Positions 1-33,549 of a stretch of 64,000 nt of DNA are shown here, one piece after another. Each line of letters opens with the position of its first letter. Position 1 is the stretch's first letter. The notes under the pieces were generated by a model. The model was not told the DNA's origin, did not search any database, and saw nothing but the letters and a program-made list of their open reading frames with translations. The position numbers were made by a program, and so were the translations under genes. The stretch lies in the IMG/VR virus record IMGVR_UViG_3300034102_001514, positions 61,806-125,805 of that record; one strand, written 5' to 3'. The DNA comes from a virus.

Positions 1-633
1 TCGCTCTTCTCTACTCAACTTTCTTGTATAAACTTGAAATCCATAATGACATGGTGGTAAAGTCATTTTATCCAACTCCCCCACATTCCAAGCTGATACC
101 ATTAACCTTCTACTATCAGGATTTGTTTTAAGTTCGTTGATTAGATTTTGGATTTGGTCTGTGTTAGAGTTTAATCCTTCCCAACTTCTCCATTGTGCAC
201 CATAGATTGGACCTAATTCTCCCCACTGTTTAGCAAACTCATCATCGGTTTTGATTCGTTCCGTGAATTCATCCATTGTCAAGTTTGATAACATATGAAG
301 CTGTTCAAGATAATTTTTACCACCACTTTCTCTGCTTTCAATCTCATATGTTTTCATGTAGTGCTTATAAGCGTCACCGGTCCATATATTGCAACCATTC
401 TGAACCAAATACTTGATATTGGTATCACCACGAAGAAACCACAACAATTCGGTTACGATTGTTTTGAATGGCATTTTCTTTGTGGTTAGTAAAGGAAACC
501 CATCCTCCATTCGGTGTTTGATTTGTCTACCAAATACTGATAGAGTTCCGGTGCCGGTTCGGTCCGTTTTTTCTATACCATTATACAAGCAACTACCAAG
601 TAGTCCTTTATAATCTTCATCTAATTGATTCAT
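1..633 (-). CDS. thyA: thymidylate synthase ThyA (3' end truncated by window edge)
   Basis: Not in the ORF track. Manual translation from ATG at 633 gives MNQLDEDY...[14 protein letters not shown]...FPLLTTKK...[11 protein letters not shown]...[10 protein letters not shown]...[13 protein letters not shown]...LPPCH, all canonical ThyA motifs. Confidence 0.96.
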
Positions 634-14120: not shown

Positions 14121-14980
14121 TATCTATAATAACCAGTGTTTCTTCTATAATTCTGAACTATTTCAGCATCCGTTAAAGCTCTCCCATAAACTCTAGCAAT
14201 ACCAAATCTACCATCAAAGTAAGAACCATCACCTTGGCTTGTTCCATCAAGAGCACCAAATGCAATACGAAATTCTGAAGCTAAATTATCCATAGGTGAA
14301 CTAAAATTTACATTTGCGGTTTGGCCTACTAAAACACCATCAATATAACCCTTTACAGGAGTTCCGTGACCCCCATAAGTTAATACAAGTTGATGCCATT
14401 CATTAAATGATAAAGCACCAGTTCCACCGGTACTTGTAATACCCGCACCGGTCCATAATCCAAATTCAACTTGACCCGATACTAATTCGATAATACTATT
14501 ATGATAGCCATCATCAACAGCACTTTGCCCTAAATGAGAAGCTATAACCCCATTATTAGTTGGATTAATCCAAACTTCAACCGACTGAGCTTCATCTTCA
14601 ATAGTTATCACTTGGTCTAAATCTGGAGTAATAATATGGTCGTTTGAAAATGTAAAATATCCAGCAGAATTCCAAGGTGGAGAACCTACAATTGTTCCGT
14701 TTCTATTGTTTTTTGAAAGGTCGTTGATTGTAGACCCACTTCCACTATATGATGCAAATATACTAGCGTCATAATACAATAGTAAATCATTTTCTACATA
14801 TGAAAGAGAACTATGAGCATATCCAAGACCAAATGTATTTCTCAAATCTTGTTGATACTCTAACCATTTTTTTTTGTTTTGCTCTTCAACAATTCTTTTA
14901 CGGCTAGCTTTTTTAGCAGCCTCTTCTATCTCTTTTTTACGAAGATAATCTTTTAAATGTGGGTTATTACTGAAATCCAT
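14120..14980 (-). CDS. LamG/concanavalin A-like domain protein
   Basis: LLLYYDA...SYSGSGSTINDLS, SVEVWINP, WHQLVLTY, YIDGVL and ARVYGRALTDAEIVQNY. Confidence 0.85.
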   Translation of the reverse strand: MDFSNNPHLKDYLRKKEIEEAAKKASRKRIVEEQNKKKWLEYQQDLRNTFGLGYAHSSLSYVENDLLLYYDASIFASYSGSGSTINDLSKNNRNGTIVGSPPWNSAGYFTFSNDHIITPDLDQVITIEDEAQSVEVWINPTNNGVIASHLGQSAVDDGYHNSIIELVSGQVEFGLWTGAGITSTGGTGALSFNEWHQLVLTYGGHGTPVKGYIDGVLVGQTANVNFSSPMDNLASEFRIAFGALDGTSQGDGSYFDGRFGIARVYGRALTDAEIVQNYRRNTGYYR

Positions 14981-14984: not shown

Positions 14985-15743
14985 TTACTTTAAATTAGGG
15001 ATACCGCCAATTTTTTCAATTCTGGCTTTCCAAGTTTTATAAATTAAACCTTTATTGGATATTGTGATAATACCATCATCCACTAATGAATTCAAGTAAT
15101 CGTTCACCACAACTTGATATGGTCTTTTCATTGTCTTTGCTTTTGAATACAATCCGTGAATGTTAGCATCTACTTCTTTTGGTAGTAAAAAGTATTTGTA
15201 ATACAATTCGGGATTTTGGCGAATTCTAACTCTCATTTTTTCATCACCCCTTAAAACCTTTGATGCTTTTGCAAGGGCTGACTTTCTTCCGTGAGTCAAG
15301 TGTTCTACTTCGTGTCTTACCAAATCACGGAGAATCGGTTGAATCTTTGAAAAAATAGTTTCACCATCGGATGGGTGAATACCAATGTGAACTTCAATTG
15401 AAGGATATTCAGAATCAGCTTCAGCAGAACCATCAATGTAAAACTTACCCGGCTTAACACCCTCTTCACTAATAGCGAACTTCAATTCTACTTCAACACC
15501 AACACCACTTGTTGAGTCGTTGAACTCGCCAACATAAATGGTACGAGTTTCGTTTTGGAACAAATCCTGCAATGAGGTGTTTGTTTCTGGATTTTTACGA
15601 ATAGTATATCCTTTGTATTTCTTTGGGGATTCTCCTGAACCACTGCCCTTGATAGCATCTTTTACCTTTGTAAAGATTGCTTTGTTGATTTCACCCGTGA
15701 GTTTATCGTACATTCCTTCTAATATGAGTTCTTTGAGCTTCAT
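14985..15743 (-). CDS. HExxH zinc-metalloprotease-like protein
   Basis: LVRHEVEHLTH plus downstream EVDAN. N-terminal MKLKELILE leader. Confidence 0.65.
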   Translation of the reverse strand: MKLKELILEGMYDKLTGEINKAIFTKVKDAIKGSGSGESPKKYKGYTIRKNPETNTSLQDLFQNETRTIYVGEFNDSTSGVGVEVELKFAISEEGVKPGKFYIDGSAEADSEYPSIEVHIGIHPSDGETIFSKIQPILRDLVRHEVEHLTHGRKSALAKASKVLRGDEKMRVRIRQNPELYYKYFLLPKEVDANIHGLYSKAKTMKRPYQVVVNDYLNSLVDDGIITISNKGLIYKTWKARIEKIGGIPNLK

Positions 15744-15744
15744 A

Positions 15745-15776
15745 CAAATATACGAATAAAATTTGAATTATCCAAA
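15745..15776 (-). promoter_or_regulatory. Bacteroidetes-type sigma70 promoter
   Basis: TTTG-N20-TATATTTG. It abuts the ATG at 15743, so the gene it serves is uncertain. Confidence 0.55.
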
Positions 15777-19884: not shown

Positions 19885-20282
19885 CAGTTAAGAGCGTCTT
19901 CCAATGATTTTTTTAGGGCTACTGAAAACTCGGTTCTTTCAAATGGTAATTCTTCATCTTGTAATTGCATTAAGGTAGCAGCCACATTTGTTTTTGCCTT
20001 ACCAATACCATAATACTCTTTACCATTCATTACCACTTTGGTTTTTACAACAGTCTTTTTTGACTTAAATTCAAATGGTCCAATCTGAATACCTGTGGTT
20101 GGAGCATCTACTGAAATGATAGTCACTTCTACGGGCTTACCACCATCACAAAGTGAGTATTTCTGACCAACCAACTCGGTTGTAATTTGTCTTGCACCAA
20201 AGGTTAGTTTTTCAGCCGGAACTCCTGGTAAACTTGCTAATGAAATTACCGATGAAATAAAATAACATACCACTGCGTTCAT
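19884..20282 (-). CDS. small CsgG/HfaB-fold-like protein
   Basis: LTFGARQITTELV, a beta-hairpin, GIGKAK and FSVALKKSLEDA parallel the layout of the 24694-25434 protein. Confidence 0.45.
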   Translation of the reverse strand: MNAVVCYFISSVISLASLPGVPAEKLTFGARQITTELVGQKYSLCDGGKPVEVTIISVDAPTTGIQIGPFEFKSKKTVVKTKVVMNGKEYYGIGKAKTNVAATLMQLQDEELPFERTEFSVALKKSLEDALN

Positions 20283-21445
20283 TGTATTCTCCTTGCGTTT
20301 GGACTTGTTTGATTTCTATGCTTGCCAGTTCCCATAATATAAAATTGATTTTGATTTTGAATTGTTCTATTTTGGGATGGAAAGTATGTGTTATAATAAT
20401 TAGTTGTTGGATTAGCTTCTATGGTAGTTTTTTCTGATTGAGTGAAAATATATTTGTTATGTAATGAATTTGATTTCAACAATGTATAACAAAAGTTTAT
20501 ATCATCCCAACTAAAAGTTGATGAGTTATTACAATCACAAGTATAGAAATCCCAACTTTGTAAATCATTTGGAAATGCTTTCATATACATCATATAAATC
20601 ATATCATTATCAGTAATAGTATGAAACTTTTGAGATACATCAATACTGACTCTATATTGTTTGTTAGATGGGTTGGATACTACAACTTGCCCATTTACAT
20701 TTGTGTTTTGAGTTGATACCACAGCCCAATTCCCTTGGGTTTGTGAGGTTGTAAATTTAAAAGAAGTTCCAGCCACATAACTTGTAGTTGTAATATAATT
20801 AACACCTAACCAAGCAGTTCCGCTTGAAATACCCATCTGCTCTTGGTTTGAACCATCAGCAGTGAATGCTCTCATAACCACATAAAATTCAGTTGGTTGA
20901 TTTTTTAAAAAATACAAATCCCATATTACATTAACACCGCTCTGATTGTACCTACAATTACCTTCGTACCTAACTCTAAACACATCACCCCAAGTCACAT
21001 CGGTATAGGTTTCAGTTGAAACTTTAGACATATTATTATCAGTAGCTCCATTATCAACTGAAGTAATGTGAATTGTAGGAACGGTTGGATTGGTTGCGTT
21101 TCCTTGATAACCTGAGCTACTTGTTGTTCCAAAACCAAACCACGAATTTGAATTAACGTGACCTTGGGTGTAAATAGTTGAACCTATTGTTGGAGTAAAT
21201 CCGCTTGGAAATGTTACTGCGGCTGACGCCTCATCGGAGTTTGCGGTACTGAACAACGTAGTTCCCCCAGCCCCTCTATCCGCTGGAATATATAGTGTTT
21301 GTGATTGAACTGTTCCTGTTAATCCACCTGCGGTAAAATGTTCTACTGTAATTGGAATACCACTAACATCCTGTGTTCCGATTGGAGTCAGAGTTATAGT
21401 TTGTGCTGCTACATTTAGGGGTAATATGATGAACCACCATTTCAT
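20279..21445 (-). CDS. secreted protein: beta-sandwich chassis with inserted NIDO-like domain and dockerin-like repeat
   Basis: Signal peptide. FPSGFTPTIGSTIYTQGHVNSNSWFGFG is NIDO-like. DCNNSSTFSWDD is an EF-hand/dockerin-like loop. Confidence 0.6.
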   Translation of the reverse strand: MKWWFIILPLNVAAQTITLTPIGTQDVSGIPITVEHFTAGGLTGTVQSQTLYIPADRGAGGTTLFSTANSDEASAAVTFPSGFTPTIGSTIYTQGHVNSNSWFGFGTTSSSGYQGNATNPTVPTIHITSVDNGATDNNMSKVSTETYTDVTWGDVFRVRYEGNCRYNQSGVNVIWDLYFLKNQPTEFYVVMRAFTADGSNQEQMGISSGTAWLGVNYITTTSYVAGTSFKFTTSQTQGNWAVVSTQNTNVNGQVVVSNPSNKQYRVSIDVSQKFHTITDNDMIYMMYMKAFPNDLQSWDFYTCDCNNSSTFSWDDINFCYTLLKSNSLHNKYIFTQSEKTTIEANPTTNYYNTYFPSQNRTIQNQNQFYIMGTGKHRNQTSPNARRIQ

Positions 21446-21446
21446 T

Positions 21447-22436
21447 TCAATAACTTAAAGTAGATTGATTATTATATCCTGGTGATAATAAATAGAAATT
21501 AGAAGTTCCTCCCGATGTTGGAGTAAATGTATAGTTTGTTGTTAGTCCGGGTATGGTGTTTCTTAAATCTGATGTACCCGTATTTAGGGAAGTCCATTGT
21601 GAGTTTGTGAATAATAATGTTGACTTTGTGAATGGTGTTCCATTTATTCTATCAGCAACTATACACACATCCCCAACCGTAAGTTTACCATCATTATTCA
21701 AATCGTACTTATGGTAATGAAAAGGCTTTAATGCTGTCTTTCCTAATACCACATCACCCGGTCCATCAAAGTCTGAAATAGATGGGTTTGTAGATACTGT
21801 TGGAACTACTACCTCAATATACCACTCCACCGAAGGATTCGTTGGTCTACTAAAAGAATACTGACCACTAGCATTTGTAACCGAAGTAGCATCTAAAGTC
21901 CAAGCCGTTGTTGTAACAATGTATTCAAATTCTAATACATAAGGTAGTGAAAAATTGTTTGGTAAATCATTCCATCTACCCCCACCAACAAATTGTACAT
22001 AGTCTTCATTACCCACGTTGTTGGGCTCTCCAGGATTCCAAGAAGAATATGAATAAGTCTCTCCGGTTACCCATCTCCAAACACCTTCAGTAACTTCATC
22101 AGTTAAACCTATCCACCCAGAAGGCCATAAATTAAATATAAAATTATTTTCAGCAGCTGAAGTTACCGTTACAAGGTGGCCACCCATTGCTTCACAGTTT
22201 GCTTTCGCCGTAGACCAGAACGCATTACCGGTTGAGCGGTAGTAGGAGTGTCCGTTGTAGTTCTGCTGATTTGTAAATCCGGTTATCACCGGAGTAACTC
22301 TTTTGTATAGGTTTACTGTTACGCCTGGTATTCCGGTTCCCACATCAGTTCTAATAGTGCCAGAATGAGTAAAATTTTGCCCTAAAAGAGATAAGGGTAG
22401 AATTAGTAGGATTAGTATTTTTGATTTAAAAATCAT
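21447..22436 (-). CDS. secreted C-type lectin domain protein with dockerin-like repeat
   Basis: Signal peptide. C-type lectin: YNGHSYY...AKANCEAMGGHLVTVTSAAEN, WIGLTD, WNPGEPNN, WND. Dockerin-like: YDLNNDGKLTVGDV. Confidence 0.85.
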   Translation of the reverse strand: MIFKSKILILLILPLSLLGQNFTHSGTIRTDVGTGIPGVTVNLYKRVTPVITGFTNQQNYNGHSYYRSTGNAFWSTAKANCEAMGGHLVTVTSAAENNFIFNLWPSGWIGLTDEVTEGVWRWVTGETYSYSSWNPGEPNNVGNEDYVQFVGGGRWNDLPNNFSLPYVLEFEYIVTTTAWTLDATSVTNASGQYSFSRPTNPSVEWYIEVVVPTVSTNPSISDFDGPGDVVLGKTALKPFHYHKYDLNNDGKLTVGDVCIVADRINGTPFTKSTLLFTNSQWTSLNTGTSDLRNTIPGLTTNYTFTPTSGGTSNFYLLSPGYNNQSTLSY

Positions 22437-23250
22437 AATTACACCCTATTGAAAATATATACGGAGTTGCTTTACGGAACCCAAGATTTTTATCTGAAAT
22501 AGAGTATGTATAACAACTTCTAATTTTAGTACCAAGTATAAATTTTTCAGTCAGTTTATATTTTAATGAAGCTCCATAGTAGGCATTAAGATTGAAGTCA
22601 TCCCAATACCAGATGTCTAACGCACCTTCAAATCCATCTAAATTAAAGTAGTGAGTTCTTATAGAAGACAGTAAAAATACTTCAGGTCCTACTACAAATC
22701 TACCATATTCAAAGTCTTTCATTCCAATCAACATAATACTATACTTTGTGTATGATGCTGCCGGATAAAATTCATCAAACAAATAAAAATCATCGTGCGT
22801 ATTATCTCTGATGAAGAAAGTGTATCCAAGTTTGGTATTATCTTTAAACTTGTAAATTTGATTAAAGTATGGACTTATTGCTACAGCAGAATGGTCAGCA
22901 AATGCCGATATTGTAATTCCGTATGATGTGGTTCTATCTACATTTTTAACAGTTTTAACTCTACTATGACTATATCCAACTTTGGTGTATTTAAAGAAGG
23001 GAGTATTGGATACAAACACTCCGTTTGTTATATTATGCTTACCCCATTCATAGGTTAAGTTATAACTCAATATACTCATATCACCTAATAAACCAACTGA
23101 TATATTAGAGCTACTCATAATATCAGTATCAAAATCAATATATTGTATTGAAGTTATATCTGATATTGTTTGTGTATTCTCCGAAGTTTGAGAATAAGTC
23201 TGAATTGATACTAATAGTATAAAAATCGGAGTTAAAACAAACTTTTTCAT
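22426..23250 (-). CDS. putative outer-membrane beta-barrel protein
   Basis: Signal peptide, alternating aromatic beta-strands, and C-terminal FSIGCNYDF (BAM-type terminal Phe). Confidence 0.6.
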   Translation of the reverse strand: MKKFVLTPIFILLVSIQTYSQTSENTQTISDITSIQYIDFDTDIMSSSNISVGLLGDMSILSYNLTYEWGKHNITNGVFVSNTPFFKYTKVGYSHSRVKTVKNVDRTTSYGITISAFADHSAVAISPYFNQIYKFKDNTKLGYTFFIRDNTHDDFYLFDEFYPAASYTKYSIMLIGMKDFEYGRFVVGPEVFLLSSIRTHYFNLDGFEGALDIWYWDDFNLNAYYGASLKYKLTEKFILGTKIRSCYTYSISDKNLGFRKATPYIFSIGCNYDF

Positions 23251-24704
23251 AACATCATCTTCGTACCGGTCATTACTTGATAATTTAAAATTTCAGCACC
23301 CAACTGATAAGCACCACTAAAAGATACACTCCATTTGAATTTATCAGTTAGTTTAAAATCCATATTTGTTAGAGGAACTAATATGAATCCGGACTTATAC
23401 CATTGGCCCTCATAATAAAAGACATACGGACTATAAATACCTAATAACATTATATTAGAACTAAATGACTTACCACCTTTGAAATTTGTAAATGTCCCAC
23501 CTACCAAAGATAGGTTTTGGAAATCACTTTTACCCAATGAACCAAATGTATAGTTTAAACCCAACAACCAAGTCATAGGACCCGTCTTTTGGGCGTTTAA
23601 GAATGAGCCGGTATTAAACCAATCAGTTTGAAAGTTAGTCATAATAGAGTTGGAAAACACTCCCATATAACCTTTTGCTTTAAAACTACCATACAAGGTT
23701 AGGTTAGCCACATTCTCTCCGGTCTGATAGTTGAATGCAGCGCCCTTGATAAAGTTTTGTTTTGTGTTAACGTGAGTTAGTGATAGGTTTACTTTTAAAT
23801 TGTCTTTGCCCGTATCTTGGATATTTGCTGAGTTTCTAATCACAACAATATCACCCGCACCAATTAAAGCACCTCTTGCAATACGTTCTTGTTTGGATTT
23901 GGATTTACCACCACCTCCACCACCACCTTCGGATGATGATGACTCCGACTCACCACCACTTGCGGTTGTTGTAGAACTTTCACCCACAGCACCTTGTTCG
24001 GCTCCACCACCTTCGGTTGAACCACCACCGCCGGAAGATGGTAATGAACCACCACCACCTTCGCCTTGTCCCGATGCGGGTTGTCCACCGCCGGAGCCAC
24101 CACCACCAGATGGAGTTCCACCGCCCGAACCGCTACCGCCGGTTGAACCGCCACCAGAACCACCACCACTTGATGAACTACCGCCGCCGGTTGGTGGTTT
24201 TGTTCCGCCACCGGAACCAGTACCACCTGATGTAGATGAATTACCACCGGCTCCGTTTTCACCGGGGTCTCCACCGCCGGAACCACCACCCATATCACCA
24301 CCCATACCACCACCGATATTTCCAGCAGCACCTGAAGCGGAACCGCTTACTGAAGTGGCTATACCAACAATGTTTGTGATGTTTATTGCGGAGTTTGTTC
24401 CAATCGCAGCATTTGAATTGTTTGCGTTTTGCCCACCATTACCCGAACAAGGGTTTGAACCCGGTGGAAATTGAGCGTTAATAGCAGCAACCCACGTTTC
24501 ATACGCTCCGGCTTGTAATTGAGCTGCTGTAAAAGTTTGATATTGACCAGCGTAGAAAAGCGTGACTGAACCGCTGGGTTGTGAGATTGTAACTGTGTTT
24601 AATATCCCTGTACAGGGGTCGGTGTAACTATACTGATATGTTTGTGCAGTTACACCAAAACCCAATACAAGAAATAGAAAAATTATCCAATGTTTACCAT
24701 CCAT
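23247..24704 (-). CDS. secreted Gly/Ser-rich protein with C-terminal beta-barrel-like domain
   Basis: Signal peptide, Cys-containing N-domain (YTDPC...NPC), ~150-aa GGS/GGT low-complexity tract and amphipathic beta-strand C-terminal half. Confidence 0.7.
   Translation of the reverse strand: MDGKHWIIFLFLVLGFGVTAQTYQYSYTDPCTGILNTVTISQPSGSVTLFYAGQYQTFTAAQLQAGAYETWVAAINAQFPPGSNPCSGNGGQNANNSNAAIGTNSAINITNIVGIATSVSGSASGAAGNIGGGMGGDMGGGSGGGDPGENGAGGNSSTSGGTGSGGGTKPPTGGGSSSSGGGSGGGSTGGSGSGGGTPSGGGGSGGGQPASGQGEGGGGSLPSSGGGGSTEGGGAEQGAVGESSTTTASGGESESSSSEGGGGGGGKSKSKQERIARGALIGAGDIVVIRNSANIQDTGKDNLKVNLSLTHVNTKQNFIKGAAFNYQTGENVANLTLYGSFKAKGYMGVFSNSIMTNFQTDWFNTGSFLNAQKTGPMTWLLGLNYTFGSLGKSDFQNLSLVGGTFTNFKGGKSFSSNIMLLGIYSPYVFYYEGQWYKSGFILVPLTNMDFKLTDKFKWSVSFSGAYQLGAEILNYQVMTGTKMML
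23910..24330. repeat. low-complexity (CCA/CCG)n tract encoding poly-Gly/Ser
   Basis: Dense ccaccaccg/ccgccacca runs with local GC elevation. Confidence 0.8.
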
Positions 24705-25434
24705 TTTGTTCCATACGCTTGATGAGGTTCATTGTAGCAACCTCCAAAGCGCGTTGTGTAGAGATACCTACGGTAGAGTTATCAAATCCCATAGTTGGAT
24801 TTTTAAAATAACCCTCACCAACTTGAGTAGATGTTCCTTGACCCGATGCTACAATATATTGTGAATTATCCACATTTACCATGCGGATTTGAATACCAAT
24901 AATTGTAGTGTTGGTCTTACTCAATTTACCCTTGTCGTAAGTTTCAGCGTAAGATACTGAAAAGTCATAGATTTCAGCATACACAATATACTTTGGCAAT
25001 ACCACAGAACCAACATTTAATTTTGTTTTACCATCACCAAGACCTTGTAAGTCTTTTTCCCAAGTATCCAACATTTGGTTTACAATGGCTTCTTTTTCTT
25101 CAGCATAAGTAAACCTGTTAGTTACCTCAAGGTTCTCTACAATACGATTAGAAACACCCATACCAACTCGTTTATCACGCAGTTCAGGAAACATATCCCA
25201 AAGTTCTTTATTTACATTAAGATTAGCAAGTTGAACTACTTGTTTTTCACCAGTATAAGCTGATAATGTATTTAATGGTTGCGATTGTTCAAACTCGGCT
25301 TTGTATGCTTCCGTAGAAATAGATGACTTACAAGAAGTAGCCATCGTTCCTACAAGTACCATACCGCCTATTACTACTAATATTCCTAGAGGTGCGAAGA
25401 TAAGTTCTAAAATTTCATCTTTACGAGTTCTCAT
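24694..25434 (-). CDS. CsgG/HfaB-family (curli secretion channel-like) lipoprotein
   Basis: Lipobox-like ATSC after a hydrophobic stretch. GMGVSNRIVENLEVTNRFTYAE, YIVYAEIYDFS and IGIQIRMVNVDNSQYIVASGQG match the CsgG fold. Confidence 0.75.
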   Translation of the reverse strand: MRTRKDEILELIFAPLGILVVIGGMVLVGTMATSCKSSISTEAYKAEFEQSQPLNTLSAYTGEKQVVQLANLNVNKELWDMFPELRDKRVGMGVSNRIVENLEVTNRFTYAEEKEAIVNQMLDTWEKDLQGLGDGKTKLNVGSVVLPKYIVYAEIYDFSVSYAETYDKGKLSKTNTTIIGIQIRMVNVDNSQYIVASGQGTSTQVGEGYFKNPTMGFDNSTVGISTQRALEVATMNLIKRMEQNGW

Positions 25435-25829
25435 TACTTACCAGCTTCCTTGGCTTCTTTTTCAGCTTTTAGTCTTGCAACTCTTTCAGCAATTGTTTCC
25501 TTTTTTTCAACCACAGGAGCAGCAGCTGCCGCAGGTTGTTGAGCAGGAACTTCTCTGATGATTTCTCTTGTATGAGTACCACCGCCTGAATTACTTTGCT
25601 GTTGAGTGTTATTATTTTCAAGGTTAATAACCACAGGAGCTGCAGCAGGTTGTTGTTGAAACTGTTGAACTTGTTCAGTTTTTACATCGGACTCTTCTTC
25701 TACACCAAAAATTTTATTGATGTTTGTACTTGCCCAGATTCCAAAACCTGTAACAGCGGTTCCAGCTATGCCGAGGATGGTCTTTTTAAGACCTGATAAT
25801 CCACCTTCTTGTTGTTCTTCTGACATCAC
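25434..25829 (-). CDS. membrane-anchored low-complexity protein
   Basis: N-terminal TM (ILGIAGTAVTGFGIWA) followed by a Q/A/P-rich tail. Confidence 0.75.
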   Translation of the reverse strand: MMSEEQQEGGLSGLKKTILGIAGTAVTGFGIWASTNINKIFGVEEESDVKTEQVQQFQQQPAAAPVVINLENNNTQQQSNSGGGTHTREIIREVPAQQPAAAAAPVVEKKETIAERVARLKAEKEAKEAGK

Positions 25830-25846
25830 TTCTTCCTTATTTTAAA

Positions 25847-26095
25847 TTAACCTAATTCTTCTTCATCTTTTTTCTTGCCACCGAAAATCTTTCCAGCTTC
25901 AGCAATACCAAAAGCGCCTAAAGTAATCATTACGAATGAATTGAAAATAGTGTCAGAGATGATTAGCTGTTGACCCATAATACCTGTTACTACATCAGCG
26001 CCGGCGAAGATAGCCATAACTGAAAATGACAAAAATCCCACGATTGTTTTTTCATTAAAATCGTTTTTGTCTTTAAAAATGTCACTAAATGCCAT
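25847..26095 (-). CDS. small two-TM membrane protein (holin-like)
   Basis: Two TM helices and a charged C-terminus. Near the endolysin. Confidence 0.55.
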   Translation of the reverse strand: MAFSDIFKDKNDFNEKTIVGFLSFSVMAIFAGADVVTGIMGQQLIISDTIFNSFVMITLGAFGIAEAGKIFGGKKKDEEELG

Positions 26096-26109
26096 ATTTT
26101 TCCTTTTTA

Positions 26110-28029
26110 TTAATATTTAACAATTTTCACAACTTTTTCTCTATCCGCCGCAACTAACTTAACAAAGTATACTCCATTTGGTAGGTCTTTAACATTTATT
26201 CCGTGTAGTTGGAAACCAATGTCCGTAATCTTTGTTTGGTAAACTTGTGATACTTGACCGTTGATGTTGTAAATTACACCAGTAAAGTCAGAATTTCTAT
26301 ACTCGTTAAAGTGTTCAATCACTAACCAACCATCAGTAAGGTCAGTAACGGGATTTGGATACACTTTAAATCCGGTCATCAATTCAGCAAGGTCAGGATT
26401 CATTGAGTTTCTATTCACTACCGAACCATCGTTTGGTGATGGTTTAACTGATAGGTCTTCTGCTTTTTCATTACCAGCAGATTTGTCAAAGATTCTCAAA
26501 GGCGAGGTCTGCCATCCAAGTGGATTAATAACATTAAATACAAATGTGAATTGATTAGTCATTGTTTCAACTAACGATGGGTTCATCTTATCCTCGTGTC
26601 CTGCGAAAAATACTCTACCTTTTTCTACTGAAATTAATGATGTCCATTTTGATACATCATCACCAACTTTGATAGAACTAAATTCAAAGATTGTAGTATC
26701 AAACTCAATACCCATTTGAGCAGCACCAATCTTATTACCAAATGTAAACATAGTCACGGGTACTTCCATCTGGTTGTTTGCAATCACCAATTTAGGAATA
26801 CGGAATTGAACCGTGTCATCTCTATTAACCATATAAACCGCTGGGTCAAGGATGTATTCAGTTCCATTGCCTGGGTTTGCAATTCTTGCCATAATAACAG
26901 CAGGGTTGTTATAACCCGTGGTAGTTGCGTCACCTACTACATAAATGTATGGATTAATTGAGTCAAGTGAGTTTACAATAGTATCAATTTGGTATCTTCT
27001 TGGTGAAGTTGTCCAGTTTGGAGCAGCCGTTGCTGATGTAGCGGTGATATACTCACTTGGCCATAATACTGATACGTTGTTTACGCCTGTAAATAAACCA
27101 TCCCAATCCGTAGATTGAAGAGCCAATCTATTAAACACAGCAAATGCGTCAGAAATCGTTACTGTTTGTGATTGGTTTACATCACCTTCATACCACTCAA
27201 TACCACTCAAAGTATCTTGCATTGAAGTGTGGTTTGCTAATTTGTATGCGTCCGTAATTGAAATAGCACCACCATCGGACATAGTGTCAGTTTGAGCGGT
27301 AATTTTTAAGTTCCAAAATGCGGTATCAAGTGGATGTGTAAATGATACTAAACCCAATGCGTTTGTTGAGTCGGATGTAATTGGCTGCCAAGTTGATTGT
27401 GGAGTTGACTTTAATCTCTTTGATGCTGAGAACCATACTCCTTGTGCTGGAGTTCCATCTGCGTTTTTAACTCTGATTGGGAATGTAATTGGTTGCATTT
27501 GGAATGCTCCACCATAATTGAATAGACCCAAGGTCACATCCGTTCCGTTTCCGGTAGTAGCGAGGTTTGAATACGAGGTAGTTCCCGTAGTAGCCATTGA
27601 GTTTACCACACCTTGGTATGTAGAACCATGTGTTAATCTTACCTTAAACATAGCACCATCAGACCAATCAAAGTTTTGATTGTTTCCGGTGTAAGTTCCG
27701 ATGATATTTACATAATCACCGCTTTTAAAGAACGAACCATACTTGTCTGGTATAGAAAGAGCAGTTGGTCCCCAAAAAACTTGAATATTTGAAAACTTTG
27801 TGTTATCGTAGAACAATCTGAACTGAACGGCTTTTACAGCACTTGCAGTTGGGTTTGCAAAGTGAATATAAATATCCGTGGTTATAGATGTATCCTCAAG
27901 GGTAAACAAAGTATCAACCAAGATATATGGGCTATTTGAGTTTGGAGCCAGTAATATCTCGGTCTTACCATTTTGTGCTACAGCACCAATTGATAAAATT
28001 CCCAATAAAAGGAATAATAATTTTTTCAT
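26110..28029 (-). CDS. secreted cohesin/dockerin scaffold-like protein with T9SS type A C-terminal sorting domain
   Basis: Signal peptide. Cohesin-like VKAVQFRLFYDNTKF and VPVTM...IGAAQMGIEFDTTIFEF. Dockerin-like ISITDAY...GDVNQSQTVTISDA. CTD VYPNP...IYNINGQ...DLPNGVYFVKL...KIVKY. Confidence 0.8.
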   Translation of the reverse strand: MKKLLFLLLGILSIGAVAQNGKTEILLAPNSNSPYILVDTLFTLEDTSITTDIYIHFANPTASAVKAVQFRLFYDNTKFSNIQVFWGPTALSIPDKYGSFFKSGDYVNIIGTYTGNNQNFDWSDGAMFKVRLTHGSTYQGVVNSMATTGTTSYSNLATTGNGTDVTLGLFNYGGAFQMQPITFPIRVKNADGTPAQGVWFSASKRLKSTPQSTWQPITSDSTNALGLVSFTHPLDTAFWNLKITAQTDTMSDGGAISITDAYKLANHTSMQDTLSGIEWYEGDVNQSQTVTISDAFAVFNRLALQSTDWDGLFTGVNNVSVLWPSEYITATSATAAPNWTTSPRRYQIDTIVNSLDSINPYIYVVGDATTTGYNNPAVIMARIANPGNGTEYILDPAVYMVNRDDTVQFRIPKLVIANNQMEVPVTMFTFGNKIGAAQMGIEFDTTIFEFSSIKVGDDVSKWTSLISVEKGRVFFAGHEDKMNPSLVETMTNQFTFVFNVINPLGWQTSPLRIFDKSAGNEKAEDLSVKPSPNDGSVVNRNSMNPDLAELMTGFKVYPNPVTDLTDGWLVIEHFNEYRNSDFTGVIYNINGQVSQVYQTKITDIGFQLHGINVKDLPNGVYFVKLVAADREKVVKIVKY

Positions 28030-28092: not shown

Positions 28093-28938
28093 TTAAACGA
28101 TATCTTTTGATTCAATTAAAGTATAAGTAAACTTTTTATTTCCAGCAGCTGCTGCTTTTCTTGCAATTGTCATAAATTGTTCAAAGTCAGCCGCTCTTTT
28201 AAATACTTGACATCCTTCAGACCAGTTTTCTACAAATGTAGAATCAGCACCTGCTTTGTGGATGTTAATACCAAATACACCTTCTTGGATTTTGGTTTCA
28301 TCGTAGTTCATATCACGATTTGCATCACGATAAACTTTTACTTTACCAAATTGTTTTAGCGCCTCATACTTACCTTGGTGTAGACCCAAAGCGTGTGAAT
28401 CAGCATACTGACCAGGAACCAATCTTGCAACACCTGCTGCGTTATGGTATTCTTTAACACCTTTAGTACCAGGGTCGGTAGTATTCATCCACTCGTTGTA
28501 AACCCAAACACCATTTTCTTTGTATGATACAGTAATTCTATCATCAAAAGCGTTGGTTACTTTTTTACCCGTATCTGAATTACGAACACCTACGATATTA
28601 AGTTCAAGGTCTTTACTTTCAAACCACTTGTATCCTTTTGCTTTTACTGCTTTTTCAATAGATTCTTTATTGTATTTTGCAGCAGCACTTGGTTTCGCAG
28701 GAGCAGCTGCTGCAGGTTTAGCAGCGGGCTTAGCAGCAGGAGCTGCTGGGGCTTTGAGACCTAATTTAACTAATGTGGATTCACCGACAATACCATCAGC
28801 GGTAAGTCCGTGTTTCTTTTGAAATGCTTTTACAGCATCTTCGGTTTTTGGTCCGAAATTACCAATTGGGTCAACACCCAATACTTTTTGGATTTCTTTG
28901 ATGAATTCGTTATTATCACCTTTTTTGTAAACAGCCAT
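28093..28938 (-). CDS. putative endolysin: peptidoglycan-binding domain + YkuD-like catalytic domain
   Basis: GNFGPKTEDAVKAFQKKHGLTADGIVG (PG_binding_1), an A/P/K linker, and GINIHKAG...WSEGCQV. Confidence 0.75.
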   Translation of the reverse strand: MAVYKKGDNNEFIKEIQKVLGVDPIGNFGPKTEDAVKAFQKKHGLTADGIVGESTLVKLGLKAPAAPAAKPAAKPAAAAPAKPSAAAKYNKESIEKAVKAKGYKWFESKDLELNIVGVRNSDTGKKVTNAFDDRITVSYKENGVWVYNEWMNTTDPGTKGVKEYHNAAGVARLVPGQYADSHALGLHQGKYEALKQFGKVKVYRDANRDMNYDETKIQEGVFGINIHKAGADSTFVENWSEGCQVFKRAADFEQFMTIARKAAAAGNKKFTYTLIESKDIV

Positions 28939-29252: not shown

Positions 29253-29469
29253 TAAGTTTATCCAAGAATTGTTCTATGGAATAAGATTTATTGTTTTGGT
29301 CTTTGATAACCACTTCATCAAGGTTATCAGGATACTTTTGTATCATTTGTTGAAGGGCTTGGAAACCATCCTCTGCCCAAAAGTTTTTGAACAAAACCTC
29401 ACCCAAAACATTCGGAGAAAAGTTTGGATTTTTAACATCATCATCCTTTAACAATATGTAATACATCAT
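29230..29469 (-). CDS. hypothetical protein
   Basis: Packed ORF containing NVLGE..F..FWAEDG and YSIEQFLD. Confidence 0.7.
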   Translation of the reverse strand: MMYYILLKDDDVKNPNFSPNVLGEVLFKNFWAEDGFQALQQMIQKYPDNLDEVVIKDQNNKSYSIEQFLDKLNGLRIIQ

Positions 29470-30635
29470 AAATTTATAAGATTCATTTCATAGTGCTTTA
29501 CTTGGCTGACCTTTACTTTAAATATGTCGAATTCATACTCACCACTATCAAAGTTGTTAAAATCAAAAATTTGAGATAGATTTTGGATAAATTGAAATGA
29601 ATTATTATTCAGCCGTAATGCGTCAAATTCCACAATAATGTCTGATTTCTCATTCATATTGAACTTTTTACTTAAATCAAATTTGGTATTAGGTTGTTCT
29701 GATTCAATGTATTGATTGATTAAATCTTGGGAACAATCAACGCTCATTCTATCACACCAAGGTTCTAATAATTCAAGGTGTTGAGCTTGACAATTTGTGA
29801 CTACAAATTCCACATTGTATTTGTGTGGAACTATCGGCTTCATTAAAGGGTCGTGTTTAACAAAGTGACCCCACTTACGAATAAAATTTCTACCATTTTT
29901 AGTTGTAGTGTGAATCCATTCTTGTGAATTTACACCAGCAGCTCCGCCTGAATGTTTATTAAATCTACTACCGCGAGATGTAAAGTGATAAACCAAAGCA
30001 TCCCAACTTTGAATAATTTTATATCCGTTCAAAACAAATCTATTGAACAAATCGGAGTCTTCTTTTGATTGCGGAGCAAACAACTCATCGTGACCACCAA
30101 TTGATAGAAAATCTTCACGATACATACACCAAGGAGCAAATATACCTTCGGTAGTTTTATTTGTATATTCAACTTCCAATTGAGATAGTTTTACGCGATT
30201 TAAATCATAATCATACTCATCAACTTCATTACCCCAATCCATAGTTAGTTTTTCAGGACCAGATGGGTGTAGTGGTGGTTCTACTCGTGTAGCACACACA
30301 ACCGAAAGAGGTGTCAGATGTTTAAGAATGTTTTTATCCATATTTGGAGAAGCAACCATATCAGCGTGAAACGCCATAATGATTGGAGTCCTTGCCATTT
30401 GGATACCTTTATCAAACATACCCACTATACCAATACGCTCAGGTCCTTCATTTCTATATGTGATTAGTTTTTTATCATTTAGTGATTTAATCCATTCGGA
30501 TGTACCATCGGTTGAAGCATCATCTAAAACTAATATCTCATGCTCACCATTTAAATCCTTAATGGATTTATATGCAAGTTGTAAAAACTCAAGGTTGTTT
30601 CTTGATGGTATTACAAATGTTATTCTTTGGTCCAT
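29466..30635 (-). CDS. glycosyltransferase family 2
   Basis: FVIPSRNN, LDDASTDGT, HADM, GGHDELF...EDSD and VYHFTSRG. Confidence 0.9.
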   Translation of the reverse strand: MDQRITFVIPSRNNLEFLQLAYKSIKDLNGEHEILVLDDASTDGTSEWIKSLNDKKLITYRNEGPERIGIVGMFDKGIQMARTPIIMAFHADMVASPNMDKNILKHLTPLSVVCATRVEPPLHPSGPEKLTMDWGNEVDEYDYDLNRVKLSQLEVEYTNKTTEGIFAPWCMYREDFLSIGGHDELFAPQSKEDSDLFNRFVLNGYKIIQSWDALVYHFTSRGSRFNKHSGGAAGVNSQEWIHTTTKNGRNFIRKWGHFVKHDPLMKPIVPHKYNVEFVVTNCQAQHLELLEPWCDRMSVDCSQDLINQYIESEQPNTKFDLSKKFNMNEKSDIIVEFDALRLNNNSFQFIQNLSQIFDFNNFDSGEYEFDIFKVKVSQVKHYEMNLINL

Positions 30636-31462
30636 AGTTCCTTAATATAATTTTTTAATTCACGAGTTGGATACCAATCCAAAACTTTGTTAGCTGTAGA
30701 ATCGGTATTCAATGTATCTCTTGCTTCACCCAATTTACCATCTTTGTAGATTGGTTCCACTCCAAACATTTTTGCAACTTCGTTTACTGAATGGTTTTTA
30801 CCCCTACCCAATTCAAACTCATAACCATATGCTTGTTTTTCCATGATAAGAATTAAAGCATCTACAATGTCATCAATATGCGTAAAATCTCTACGTTGTT
30901 CACCATCACCATAGATTTCACATTGAATCCCATTTTGGATATTGTTAATCCACCTTCCAATCAAAGTGGTGTATCCACCCTCAAGGAGTTGGTGTGGTCC
31001 ATAAACATTGTAGAACCTTGCTATGGATGATAATAATCCAAAATGAGTTTGGTATAGGGTAATAATATCTTCACCCAAATCCTTTGAAAATGTGTAAGGG
31101 TTTTTAAACCTACCACTATGTTTAGATGAAGAACCGGCGTAGATTAGGGGTATATTATACCTAATACAAAATTTAACCATTTCATATGTTCCATTGAAGT
31201 TTGTATCAATATACTCTTCAGGTCGTTCAAATGATGGTCCAATTCTTGCAATAGCAGCCAAGTGAAATATAATATTAAAATCTTTATCCATTGTGGATAT
31301 ATTTTGAATATCACCGGCCCAATAACGACAACCATCTACTTCATTGGATTTTAAACCAGTTGAGTAATTGTCCAATGATTGGACTTCGTGTCCTTCTTTT
31401 AATAATCGTTTGATGAGGTTTGTTCCCACAAAACCAGCACCACCCGTAACTAATATTTTCAT
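30620..31462 (-). CDS. NAD-dependent epimerase/dehydratase
   Basis: VTGGAGFVG, HLAA, YTFSK (YxxxK), RFYNVYGP and GDGEQRRDF. Confidence 0.93.
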   Translation of the reverse strand: MKILVTGGAGFVGTNLIKRLLKEGHEVQSLDNYSTGLKSNEVDGCRYWAGDIQNISTMDKDFNIIFHLAAIARIGPSFERPEEYIDTNFNGTYEMVKFCIRYNIPLIYAGSSSKHSGRFKNPYTFSKDLGEDIITLYQTHFGLLSSIARFYNVYGPHQLLEGGYTTLIGRWINNIQNGIQCEIYGDGEQRRDFTHIDDIVDALILIMEKQAYGYEFELGRGKNHSVNEVAKMFGVEPIYKDGKLGEARDTLNTDSTANKVLDWYPTRELKNYIKELWTKE

Positions 31463-32391
31463 AATATAGATTTTATCTTTTCTATAAATACCGATTCCAA
31501 ATACAATTCGTTGTATAGTTGCTTTGTGGATTCGCTACACTCTTTGTAAAAATCCGTATCAGATTTTAATTTGTTTGCTAATTCTTTTGCTGTGACTATA
31601 TCACCACGTTCTACACTTAAATTTGGGTGTAGATGTTTTTGCGTATTTACATCATTGTATCCAATACAAGGAATACCCAAATAAGAACAATTTAAAGGGA
31701 ATTGGCCGGCTGACGCAGGATAGCATTGTACCGCATATTTATATTTTGATAATTCAAACATAAAATCAGACCATACCATCCACGGTAAATACTCAACTCC
31801 GTTTTGTTCCTCACCATTTTTAAACTTACCAGTTTTATAACCAACCATTGGCAAGTCAAACTCACAAGCTATGGACCAAGCATCAAAACCACGATATGCA
31901 CTTGTCCAATTTCCAGCAACAAATACTTTTTCTTCTTTTGTTTTAGATTGGGTTATTCCGTTATCAATCATTAAAGTTGGTAAAACAAATGCGGGTTTAT
32001 TCGTTACTCCTCCAAAAAAAGGAACATCAATATCGTTATGACACAAAACACCATCGCTATGTATTAGTTGCTTATAAAACCAAGCCATAGATATAAATGG
32101 TTCGTCTTGCCAATCCCATTGAATACTTTCTTGCATCACATAAACTTTTTTACATAGAGACTTTATGTTTTGAATTAAATCAACTTGATTTACAGCAAGA
32201 TATTCTCTATTTTTTTCTTTGGGAATAATCACAATTCCAACATCAAAGTTCTCATTTGGAAATGACTCTGAAAATATTGGAATGTGAACTGCATCTAAAG
32301 CACATATCCAAGCTTGGTCAGTTCTCATATTTGGGTTGTTTCTTGGAACTTTTCCAAAATAACCACCTTCAGTAAAAAATGCTATTTTCAT
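31459..32391 (-). CDS. glycosyltransferase-like protein (GT-B)
   Basis: MKIAFFTE start and AGQFPLNCSYLGIPCIG. Within the glycan cluster. Confidence 0.65.
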   Translation of the reverse strand: MKIAFFTEGGYFGKVPRNNPNMRTDQAWICALDAVHIPIFSESFPNENFDVGIVIIPKEKNREYLAVNQVDLIQNIKSLCKKVYVMQESIQWDWQDEPFISMAWFYKQLIHSDGVLCHNDIDVPFFGGVTNKPAFVLPTLMIDNGITQSKTKEEKVFVAGNWTSAYRGFDAWSIACEFDLPMVGYKTGKFKNGEEQNGVEYLPWMVWSDFMFELSKYKYAVQCYPASAGQFPLNCSYLGIPCIGYNDVNTQKHLHPNLSVERGDIVTAKELANKLKSDTDFYKECSESTKQLYNELYLESVFIEKIKSIL

Positions 32392-32957
32392 ATGTTTTGT
32401 AATGCTGTATAATAGTTGGTAACATTTGGGTGAAAGTAGCTAACTTTACAATCAAAAACCGACTCATCAAGATAAGCTCTACCTCCACCACCACTTATGT
32501 ATTCAGTTGCATTGAAATGTTTACATATATCTGCAAGTCGCTGGGAACTTAATGATACGATTCCTAACTCGGATGACCTAACCATTGGCGTTGTTATACC
32601 CAATTTGGTTCTACAATATTCAATACTAGCAATGTTAATATCTACAAGATAGTTTGATAAATATATTTCAGAAAAATCTACACCAAAATTAGTTTGTAAT
32701 TTATTTAAAATTACGCGTTTCCATTTTGCATTTTTACTAACTATAATATCTTTAATCAACTTTAAGTTTGCGTGTTGTTCCAACTCCACACTAAACCATT
32801 CATCTACTCCATTTTTATTTTGGAATTTGTTTCGGTTCTGAAAGTTGTTTTTTGTATATTGAACATCATCTAAAATTACAAATAGGTCAGCCGCTTCCAT
32901 TTTTTGAAAGAATCCCATGTAAGGGAAATGCTCGGGTTGGTGTATTGTTATTTTCAT
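32388..32957 (-). CDS. wbqC: WbqC-family protein
   Basis: IHQPEHFPYMGFFQK, DDVQY..NNFQNRN and YISGGGGRAYL. Confidence 0.88.
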   Translation of the reverse strand: MKITIHQPEHFPYMGFFQKMEAADLFVILDDVQYTKNNFQNRNKFQNKNGVDEWFSVELEQHANLKLIKDIIVSKNAKWKRVILNKLQTNFGVDFSEIYLSNYLVDINIASIEYCRTKLGITTPMVRSSELGIVSLSSQRLADICKHFNATEYISGGGGRAYLDESVFDCKVSYFHPNVTNYYTALQNI

Positions 32958-33547
32958 CGAAATAATACCATTAAAAAATCAAATTTTGATTTGTGTATTA
33001 AGGTTACGTTTTCCGTTACTGATAATGCAATCTCTAATGTAGATGCTGGTGAGAAATACTCAATGTTAGTGCTTCTTATAGAAGCCCATGTACTTGGAAA
33101 ATTTACCAAAACAACATTAGAACAATCATACATACATTGTAGGTATTGTTTTAATTTAGTTGGATGGTCAGCCGGCCCTCCTTGATTTCCAGCAACTCCG
33201 GATGAAATTGCTAAATCATACTTTTTGTTAATTTTTGATTCTAAAATATCTAATACCTCAAACGAATGTTCTTTGTAATTTTCAGATGCAATTTTAACAA
33301 ACTCATCATTTATATCAATACCATGATATGACTTACAAGTATAACCAAAATCAAAGAAAGACCCCCAACCACACCCAAATTCAATAACGGACTTATCCGA
33401 AAACGGAATAATTGAATTCATAGCATCATATCTAAACTTAGCAGAACTACCATCAGCAGACCCCCATGTCAGAGACCTATAATCTCCAACCCCATATGTT
33501 TTTAAAGACTCAGCGTACCAAGTCATCATTCTTTCACGTTGATTCAT
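32954..33547 (-). CDS. class I SAM-dependent methyltransferase
   Basis: VIEFGCGWG, YHGIDI and YDLAISSG. Likely start MNQRERM. Confidence 0.85.
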   Translation of the reverse strand: MNQRERMMTWYAESLKTYGVGDYRSLTWGSADGSSAKFRYDAMNSIIPFSDKSVIEFGCGWGSFFDFGYTCKSYHGIDINDEFVKIASENYKEHSFEVLDILESKINKKYDLAISSGVAGNQGGPADHPTKLKQYLQCMYDCSNVVLVNFPSTWASIRSTNIEYFSPASTLEIALSVTENVTLIHKSKFDFLMVLFR

Positions 33548-33549
33548 AT

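Follow-up and report, generated by a model that had tools for sequence, protein, structure and literature searches.

Apparent exchange of putative glycan-binding domains within one loop of a shared beta-sandwich in proteins of a large Bacteroidota phage

A 64,000-nucleotide (nt) stretch of viral DNA, hereafter the window (positions 61,806 to 125,805 of the 125,805-base IMG/VR virus record IMGVR_UViG_3300034102_001514, completeness estimate 70%), carries three genes whose products appear to be built on one small beta-sandwich domain, which we denote the chassis, with whole payload domains (heads) exchanged inside a single loop of it. We hold this structural and evolutionary core, the common chassis and the exchange of payloads, with high confidence, and it is probable that the three genes are paralogues making up a phage-borne family of exported, modular proteins predicted to bind glycans. 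All features described below lie on the minus strand, the only coding strand of the window. The 388-amino acid (aa) gene (20279..21445; open reading frame [ORF] and AlphaFold model) encodes a putative signal peptide, a split chassis, a ~200-aa NIDO-like payload and a degenerate dockerin-like module; the 329-aa gene (21447..22436; ORF and Pfam) encodes a putative signal peptide, a split chassis, a C-type lectin payload and a dockerin-like module; and the 639-aa gene (26110..28029) encodes a putative signal peptide, an N-terminal domain, an unsplit chassis with a dockerin-like module, a cohesin, and a type IX secretion system (T9SS) sorting domain of type A. A profile of the C-terminal half of the chassis detects exactly these three chassis genes in the record.

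The three ORFs are as given in an earlier note made from the sequence alone, and every peptide quoted there is present in the translations. In the 639-aa protein, the segment IRVKN...SASKR (residues 185-205) is followed after 8 residues by WQPITS... (from residue 214); the corresponding segments are separated by 132 residues in the 329-aa protein (IRTDV...LYKR, 28-46, and WTLDAT..., from 179) and by 202 residues in the 388-aa protein (GTQDV...VEHF, 23-37, and WAVVST..., from 240). Relatives at E <= 0.001 comprised 2011 of 4236 candidates for the 329-aa protein, 522 of 3174 for the 388-aa protein and 192 of the 8000 scored for the 639-aa protein. Pairwise BLASTP among the three proteins gave weak matches (best E 0.006-0.05) and was not decisive, so we turned to profile-profile comparison. 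Family profiles of the C-terminal halves aligned in hhalign with a probability of 99.4% for 329 vs 388 (E 4e-21, 150 columns), 92.6% for 329 vs 639 (E 4e-7) and 92.2% for 388 vs 639 (E 6e-7), which indicates that the C-terminal halves of the three families are homologous. The junction was examined with a script that deleted the payload columns, after which the flanks were joined and hhalign was rerun. With the payload excised, the profiles aligned end to end (E 5e-30, 2.3e-10 and 3.2e-10), the joined flanks matching FTHSGTIRTD..VTVNLYKR with ITFPIRVKNAD..WFSASKR. The gain in hhalign score from the N-terminal strands was +21.6 (329 vs 388), +13.0 (329 vs 639) and +3.9 (388 vs 639), vs a change of -0.1 to -0.4 in controls with the N-terminal columns reversed. 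The late strand (YIYVVGD, FYLLSPG and FYIMGTG in the 639-, 329- and 388-aa proteins, respectively) and the dockerin-like loop, both singled out in the earlier note, fall into one register across 22 family members. The common chassis that the note had proposed by eye is thus supported by the profile comparisons, by the score gains from the N-terminal strands and by the structural models described next.

In the 329-aa protein, the two N-terminal chassis strands occupy residues 20-50 (22287..22379; modelled strands 21-27 and 40-47, predicted local distance difference test [pLDDT] ~74-78), and the C-terminal chassis half, delimited by hhalign, occupies residues 172-329 (21450..21923), with strands, the dockerin-like module (~214-290, loop DLNNDGKLTVGD) and the closing strand. 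The N-terminal strands of the 388-aa protein (QTITLTPIGTQDVSGIPITVEH) are found at residues 15-39 (21329..21403; modelled strands 14-22 and 31-38), and its C-terminal half at residues 238-388 (20282..20734; model, fold search and hhalign), where strands 239-269 are followed by a helical dockerin-like module (279-345, CDCNNSSTFSWDD) and by closing strands 359-372, which include FYIMGTG. The uninterrupted chassis of the 639-aa protein spans residues 179-378 (26896..27495; hhalign and Pfam), with the dockerin-like module at ~246-304 and the 8-residue loop LKSTPQST at the site that holds the payload in the other two.

The AlphaFold model of the 388-aa protein (mean pLDDT 84.9) consists of strands 14-22 and 31-38, an all-beta block at 41-236, strands 239-269, helices 279-344 and strands 359-372. 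In an exhaustive VIA structural search, prealbumin-like domains aligned with this model over the range 13..373 (72-93 residues, Z 4.8-6.1), among them transthyretin (4pwe_B, Z 6.1, root mean square deviation [rmsd] 2.6 Å, 88 residues), 5-hydroxyisourate hydrolase, SdrD B (10ps_A, Z 5.8), CnaB2 (8bdw, Z 5.3) and carboxypeptidase-D regulatory domains; the transthyretin, SdrD B and CnaB alignments cover 85-93 residues (Z 5.3-6.1). Because single-domain structures align across this entire range, the first, middle and last strand groups can be assigned to one prealbumin-like sandwich, and, according to the model, the payload and the helical module are both excursions from one sandwich of ~90 residues. 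The 329-aa model, of which the chassis strands alone were used, aligned over 20..215 with the lectin skipped (3e8v_A, Z 7.3; SdrD 10ps_A, Z 6.7, rmsd 1.9 Å, 62 residues). Both models align to single-domain members of the seven-stranded prealbumin-like fold, CnaB2 8bdw_A scoring Z 5.3-6.4 over the two (fold similarity only), and in both the segments before and after the payload lie in one split beta-sandwich, as the structure check suggested in the earlier note had anticipated. The CnaB/SdrD-like label of the note holds insofar as SdrD B and CnaB are among the matches, but a transthyretin/CarboxypepD_reg-like sandwich describes the fold equally well. Among Pfam families, SdrD_B remains below the cut-off (14.6 bits vs 29.7 on the 329-aa protein; 24.4 bits on gp013 of the cultured Flavobacterium phage immuto, vB_FspM_immuto, NC_055915), and CarboxypepD_reg exceeds it in distant relatives only (P0487, 38.8 bits vs 32.3; P0484, 42.2 bits). 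Among BFVD entries, the 388-aa model matches phage proteins of 636 aa (E 3.8e-7; named for its T9SS sorting domain) and of 363 aa (E 1.7e-6), consistent with a chassis in common with the 639-type proteins.

Among homologues, the inserted domain varies and the flanks are kept, the outcome that the earlier note had made its homologue check. In IMG/VR, 223 relatives were confirmed among 280 pattern matches. For six PA14-bearing relatives of the 388-aa protein, identity is 91-95% over residues 15-36 and 76-79% over residues 240-388, with 16-18% between them. A PA14 domain (PF07691) scoring above the cut-off of 24 (27.5-50.7 bits) lies between the chassis halves in P0218, P0372, P0375, P0391, P0412, P0440, P0459 and P0471 and in the ORFs L002:2563-3660 and L003:1326-2426. 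A fourth payload is found in P0201: its leader and N-terminal strands are near-identical to those of the 388-aa protein and its C-terminal half is ~80% identical, but the middle is another domain with a NIDO-like opening motif. The cassette-like exchange of heads in one loop, as the note had envisaged it, is thereby borne out, PA14 and two other payloads being found between flanks that are 76-95% identical. In at least nine relatives of the 329-aa protein among the matches listed, a Laminin_G_3 domain is nested within the lectin; such double nesting, Laminin_G_3 in lectin in chassis, was observed outside the window in P0056, P0058-P0065, P0362 and P0395.

Chassis and payload types were tabulated for 621 distinct near-complete C-terminal halves among 1789 pooled proteins and ORFs, and the resulting numbers express occurrence, not population frequencies, because the sample was gathered with queries from the same family. 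The 329-type chassis carried the lectin in 190 cases, PA14 in 29, PA14 together with the P0201-type payload in 7, the P0201-type payload alone in 3 and the 388-type payload in 9, with none detected in 12. For the 388-type chassis, the respective numbers are 0, 38, 0, 20 and 97, with none detected in 19; the 639-type chassis carried none of these payload classes (none detected in all 197). In total, PA14 occurs on 36 chassis of the 329 type and 38 of the 388 type, the P0201-type payload on 10 and 20, and the lectin on the 329-type chassis only; the table thus places three payload types on both chassis subtypes. In every split form read individually, the payload comes after the second strand (..LYKR or ..VEH); insertion after ..LYKR was read directly in P0372, P0391, an ORF of L111, P0377, P0210, P0380, P0371, P0445, P0444, P0453 and P0375. 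The loop after the second strand is a hot spot that is either short, as in the 639-aa protein, or occupied by a whole binding domain, and the sequence comparisons indicate that payloads are exchanged by recombination within conserved chassis-coding flanks, both between near-identical genomes and between chassis subtypes.

One swap can be followed at the DNA level. The metagenome contig L093 matches the window at 27448-22424 (92.2% identity) and at 20708-18000 (96.0%), and between these matches 691 nt (L093:4999-5689) take the place of 1715 nt of the window (20709-22423). The 1715 nt comprise the lectin gene and, from the 388-aa gene, the part for the N-terminus and payload; the 691 nt encode the corresponding part of a PA14 protein that is 86% identical to P0218, so that one PA14-chassis gene in L093 replaces two chassis genes of the window. 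The right breakpoint is located at ~20706, corresponding to residue ~246, six residues into the post-payload strand; one L093 breakpoint is thus at the payload/chassis junction. Contigs L119, L116, L118 and L154 are colinear with the window throughout. In several close relatives (P0221, P0224 and P0237), the leader of the PA14 gene resembles that of lectin-LamG relatives (P0056) and the N-terminal strands are of the 388 type, so the gene is a three-way mosaic.

The payload of the 329-aa protein (residues 51-171, 21924..22286) is a C-type lectin domain (CTLD), lying between the chassis peptides as the earlier note had reported: Pfam Lectin_C (PF00059) matches residues 74-167 with E 9.1e-15 and 55.8 bits vs a cut-off of 22.6. 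The site residues E137-P138-N139, E144 and W155-N156-D157 are invariant in 26 of 26 aligned relatives. In animal lectins, the EPN motif goes with a preference for mannose, glucose or N-acetylglucosamine (GlcNAc)-type ligands, and by this analogy the phage lectin head is predicted to bind such ligands. The domain contains a single cysteine (C81), so that the two canonical CTLD disulfides are absent. We found no template/variable repeat pair of a diversity-generating retroelement touching the lectin gene in the window. The payload of the 388-aa protein (residues 40-237, 20735..21328; modelled strands within 41-236) is all-beta, and VIA matches over 75..236 (YidC periplasmic domain, rhamnogalacturonan lyase and aldose-epimerase-like folds, Z 5.4-6.1) suggest a resemblance to beta-supersandwich carbohydrate-binding or mutarotase-like folds. 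The NIDO-like label given to it in the note has some footing: in the ESM Atlas, the clusters nearest to this payload have NIDO in 12-14% of their members (score 0.94), and the related P0201-type payload of P0445 reaches 24.1 bits vs the NIDO cut-off of 25. Pfam NIDO (PF06119), however, had no match on the 388-aa protein, in any of 10 relatives scanned or in the six-frame translation of the record, so we treat NIDO-like as a reasonable lead, not as membership.

Type I dockerins consist of a duplicated 12-residue calcium loop, each followed by a helix. In the alignment of the 22 C-terminal halves, the module that precedes the closing strands has the consensus FY..DVN.DG.ITISDAY.VF.R downstream of an earlier I...DA helix; the 329-aa protein (DLNNDGKLTVGD) and most of the aligned members have a canonical second calcium loop, and of the first loop only I-x-x-x-D-A and the helix remain. 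Searched against 1.84 billion representatives, the profile of the C-terminal half retrieved 376 proteins at E <= 0.001 and 117 at E <= 1e-10, and profile positions ~40-100 reached Pfam Dockerin_1 proteins with 4-12 repeats (P0396, P0431, P0438, P0441 and P0452). Two further proteins, P0484 and P0487, contain CarboxypepD_reg and Dockerin_1 both above the Pfam cut-offs (Dockerin_1 of P0487, 47.1 bits). A six-frame scan of the record found only two Dockerin_1 matches, one in the 639-aa gene (16.7 bits alone, 27.8 bits with in-frame neighbouring stretches, over the cut-off) and one in the 329-aa gene (E 0.002, 15.9 bits, under the cut-off); the 388-aa protein had no Dockerin_1 match. These similarities suggest that the embedded module is a dockerin-type pair of helices with calcium loops, for which calcium binding is predicted. 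The dockerin-like loop of the earlier note therefore stands in that it aligns in all three families, but it is embedded within the sandwich and does not follow it.

The phage origin of the genes and the further domains of the 639-aa protein go beyond what the note had described. The window encodes a family B DNA polymerase (PolB), a clamp loader, ribonucleotide reductase, thymidylate synthase, a GroEL-like chaperonin, three Mom-like proteins, one endolysin-like protein and a large sugar-biosynthesis cluster. Given PolB, clamp loader, ribonucleotide reductase and endolysin on the same single coding strand, the assignment to a virus record and the presence of the same module in an isolated Flavobacterium phage, the three chassis genes are phage genes, from a large Bacteroidota phage. 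In the 639-aa protein, the chassis is followed by a cohesin (residues 400-548, 26386..26832; Pfam PF00963, 26.8 bits vs a cut-off of 24.1 in the protein scan and 27.1 bits in the record scan) and by a T9SS type A C-terminal sorting domain (CTD; residues 556-638, 26116..26364; PF18962, E 3.6e-10, 40.4 bits vs 27; TIGR04183, E 1.6e-9, 37.6 bits vs 23), each the sole match of its kind in the 125.8-kb record. These similarities suggest that the 639-aa protein crosses the outer membrane by the host T9SS. The 639-family profile searched against PDB sequences gave only E 0.36-0.58 (the T9SS CTD of mirolase and a cohesin). The N-terminal domain (residues 19-178, 27496..27975) is a lead to a possible second, divergent cohesin: 18 of 30 ESM Atlas matches fall in the cohesin set (score 0.93), with no Pfam match there and no significant hhalign match to the protein's own cohesin (probability 1.8%, E 0.027, 29 columns).

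The arrangement of these genes was surveyed in 84 sources, 83 loci and the window. The 639-type and 329-type genes occur together in 55 of the 84. In 47 loci, the 639-type gene is a fusion of chassis and cohesin-CTD; in 9 it is split into two adjacent genes (7 with a 363-368-aa ORF, plus L042 and L049). In the seven, a 243-261-aa cohesin ORF begins 1-3 nt after the 363-368-aa ORF, the cohesin ORF of L074 being 136 aa as listed. The split form is also found in phage immuto: gp013 is 55% identical to the 329-aa protein over the full length, gp014 corresponds to residues 1-374 of the 639-aa protein (E 3e-46), and gp015, directly after it, corresponds to residues 407-638 (E 3e-19), with the cohesin (36.7 bits) and the sorting domain.

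All three proteins begin with a short hydrophobic leader, judged by eye, and have a Gln after the likely cleavage site, which is invariant in the 329 and 388 families and present in at least 90% of the 639 family. This Gln fits the Q-rule for signal peptidase I substrates of Bacteroidetes (PMC5837995), and together with the leader it leads us to infer that all three proteins are Sec-exported.

Combining these elements, we propose that the dockerin-like modules of the head-bearing proteins would bind the cohesin or cohesins of the 639-aa protein, that the host T9SS would export this protein with the heads docked on it, and that the infected cell, or its debris, would display a set of sugar-binding heads chosen by the phage. 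The phage might benefit through attachment of infected cells to particles or algae, or through receptor masking. Docking is suggested by the way in which the chassis and cohesin genes are fused or split, by the dockerin-like module that the proteins share and by the presence of only one sorting domain (the record has one CTD and one Pfam-level cohesin for three chassis/dockerin modules); we regard it as plausible, though somewhat short of an even chance. More tentative still, and rather doubtful at present, is the broader picture of a widespread clade of large Bacteroidota phages with a self-contained, cellulosome-like surface-display kit, in which a T9SS-hijacking cohesin scaffold and dockerin adaptors with cassette heads would re-program stickiness. 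If it were true, the stickiness of the infected cell, its debris or released particles would be set by the virus, and the kit would be to accessory genes what host-range cassettes are to tail fibres, as well as a display scaffold of natural origin that works by loop insertion.

Several observations weigh against the reading of the three proteins as exported, split-chassis adaptors of a cohesin scaffold. The signal peptides were called by eye. The 329-aa model, built from a shallow alignment, is poor (mean pLDDT 51.5; chassis strands 67-90), its lectin part, at pLDDT 31-42, being poorly modelled as a fold. VIA Z scores of 5-7.3 are middling on the tool's own scale, for a small domain of ~90 residues, and Foldseek gave no meaningful match of the 388-aa model to the PDB (TM score ~0.1). 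The query-driven sampling behind the chassis-by-payload numbers belongs here as well, and the N-terminal strand signal in 388 vs 639 (+3.9) is too small to suffice alone. The last point, with the shortness of the segment (~25 residues), would suit ordinary tandem domain shuffling, in which the payloads are N-terminal fusions and the strands before them merely a conserved start of the mature protein. Indeed, some relatives have their payload ahead of an intact, unsplit chassis: in P0399 and P0496 the payload is GEVED, in P0381 a NIDO-like domain and in P0434 legume lectin together with laminin-G, with P0468 also payload-first. In these same relatives, however, the intact chassis opens with ..SG.I....G..NVPVKL[YF]KR, running straight into the W..T.TN..G strand, and as this is the motif that precedes the payload in the split forms, it counts against tandem shuffling. 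So do the placement of the pre-payload strands within the sandwich aligned to transthyretin, SdrD and CnaB in both models and the score gains of 13 and 21.6, which vanish in the reversed controls; we consider this explanation highly improbable. Only slightly better placed, and still very unlikely, is the idea that the proteins are components of the virion, such as receptor-binding fibres or decoration proteins, and that the exchanged heads determine host range in the manner of tail-fibre cassettes. Phage receptor-binding proteins typically swap their heads between conserved flanks, virions commonly bear lectin-like and Ig-like domains, and phage neck and tail-tip proteins with the small fold appear in the VIA list (Z 5.5-6.2). 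This idea is opposed by the hydrophobic leader and following conserved Gln of all three proteins, by the T9SS sorting domain of one of them, which directs export from the periplasm, by gene neighbours that are leader-bearing envelope proteins and lysis genes, not head or tail genes, and by the lack of a match to any PHROG structural family.

The alternative that bears most directly on docking accepts the chassis and the exchange, but takes the dockerin-like module for a structural calcium-binding insert of the sandwich, comparable to the EF-hand loops of SdrD B repeats. The proteins would then function on their own as soluble lectins, periplasmic or released, and the 639-aa protein would use its cohesin for another purpose. 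SdrD B is among the best structural matches, and SdrD_B of Pfam matches the same stretch weakly. Dockerin_1 is sub-threshold in single-protein scans (639-aa protein, residues 254-302, E 0.02, 15.5 bits vs a cut-off of 22.9), and the loop of the 388-aa protein (CDCNNSSTFSWDD) is degenerate, having lost most of the canonical calcium ligands, so that the role of the module could be purely structural, like that of the calcium or disulfide elements of SdrD B repeats. In addition, neither the 329- nor the 388-aa protein bears a T9SS sorting domain or another signal for export across the outer membrane, and both would be periplasmic unless they ride on the 639-aa protein or take some other route. Set against this, the family profile reaches bona fide multi-dockerin proteins through exactly the module segment, the chassis and cohesin genes are fused or adjacent in the 47 and 9 loci described above, and three cellular proteins distantly related to the chassis profile (P0497, P0498 and P0503) join Dockerin_1, Cohesin, CarboxypepD_reg and a T9SS CTD. 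Moreover, no part of the 388 family is more conserved than the module (76-79% identity despite the difference in payload). We judge the structural-insert explanation unlikely on balance, yet far from negligible.

Proteins with some of these features are known. Pilus tip adhesins and the B repeats of SdrD, one of the microbial surface components recognizing adhesive matrix molecules (MSCRAMMs), similarly have a ligand-binding head in a small CnaB/prealbumin-like stalk domain, or calcium loops within the SdrD B sandwich; RrgA of Streptococcus pneumoniae, which has a nested domain arrangement, is among the structural matches of the chassis (PDB 2ww8, Z 5.4), as is SdrD (Z 6.4-6.7). Unlike these Gram-positive adhesins, the present family is phage-encoded, with a Gram-negative Bacteroidota host, and has no sortase motif; its heads are of lectin type (C-type lectin, PA14, NIDO-like) and demonstrably exchanged, and the dockerin lies in the same sandwich. 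With cellulosomes and the cohesin/dockerin T9SS cargo of Bacteroidota, the family shares Cohesin, the two-loop dockerin-like module and the type A sorting domain, but the cargo consists of lectin-like heads, not enzymes, the dockerin is embedded, not terminal, there are only one or two cohesins, and the system is virus-borne, its cohesin-dockerin binding being predicted. The C-type lectin resembles the animal type (PF00059) in its match well over the cut-off and its invariant EPN...E...WND, and differs in having a single cysteine, in being inserted in another domain and in being sometimes split by Laminin_G_3, sugar binding being predicted.

Among phages, the accessible part of the Cryophage study (Bellas et al. 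2020, PMC7468147) describes proteins of a Bacteroidota phage with type A T9SS sorting domains, including a PA14 protein, the genes for which are hypervariable between similar phage genomes. There, each variable protein has its own sorting domain, whereas in the present phage only the scaffold-like 639-aa protein has one, and that part of the article describes no shared split chassis, cohesin or dockerin. The segment gp013-gp018 of immuto is an orthologous module that differs in having the scaffold in two genes, another gene order and no 388-type gene in the stretch examined. These genes carry only the annotations 'lectin C-type domain-containing', 'cohesin domain-containing' or hypothetical, and our searches yielded no paper about them. 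The separate elements are each already known, namely adhesins with nested domains, pairs of cohesin and dockerin in T9SS cargo, and variable T9SS cargo of phages, the last with Cryophage as its one published precedent; in the open full texts searched, we found no description of an exchangeable head and an embedded dockerin in one small sandwich, nor of combinatorial subtype exchange carried by widespread large aquatic phages, as a combination. If the proposed reading is true, this would be a virus-encoded cohesin-dockerin system and a clear natural case of recombinational payload exchange inside a domain, not between domains, on a small natural scaffold, one loop of which accommodates lectin, PA14 and NIDO-like domains and even double nesting. 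It would also provide a catalogue of uncharacterised predicted glycan-binding heads and a testable route by which abundant aquatic phages could alter the adhesive surface of Flavobacterium-like hosts; with orthologous genes in the cultured phage immuto, these hypotheses can be tested directly.

Between the 639- and 329-aa genes lie co-conserved neighbours encoding predicted envelope proteins of 131, 246, 485 (Gly/Ser-rich) and 274 aa (ORFs, 22426..25829), for which no Pfam, PHROG or NCBIfam family match was found. The 246-, 485- and 274-aa proteins bear leaders and are encoded at 22426-25434; the 246-aa protein is a possible lipoprotein, the 485-aa protein has a Gly/Ser-rich stretch of ~170 residues, and the 274-aa protein ends in ..NYDF. 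The first two are kept in immuto as gp017/gp018 (37% and 32% identity). We considered the 246-aa protein as CsgG-like and dropped this assignment, as the CsgG model had no match in the record and the protein has no NCBIfam or Pfam match. These three neighbours might serve export or anchoring of the head proteins. The 131-aa protein is membrane-anchored and, together with an 82-aa protein with two hydrophobic stretches (phrog_38409), adjoins the endolysin-like gene (PG_binding_1 plus phrog_3000; 25434-26095, 28093-28938), so that a lysis cassette is likely interleaved with the adhesin module.

Elsewhere in the window is a ~15-kb stretch of sugar-modifying genes (29466-45194), including several glycosyltransferases, aminotransferases, an epimerase, WbqC-like, PIG-L-like and carbamoyltransferase genes, and methyltransferases, with a formyltransferase gene outside this run at 6649-7314. 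The phage may remodel surface glycans recognisable by its own lectins. A 286-aa protein with Laminin_G_3 (14120-14980, E 9e-17; weak TafC-like match) is lectin-like but outside the chassis family, as judged by the C-half profile. The PolB gene (51297-53816) has its nearest isolated-phage match in Microcystis phage Mel-JY01 (48% identity), and the closest DNA match of the lectin gene is in a Flavobacterium phage (72%). The replication region also encodes a DruA-like protein (a Druantia component, E 3e-25) and three Mom-family proteins (48521-49708, 50455-51069 and 57232-58771). Finally, a 45-nt intergenic motif is present in seven copies (1735-1779, 15732-15776, 46138-46182, 50419-50463, 56735-56779, 58092-58136 and 63757-63801) and reads, on the coding (minus) strand, TTTG, ~20 nt, then TAnnTTTG, which we take to be the Bacteroidota housekeeping promoter form and which fits a Bacteroidota host.

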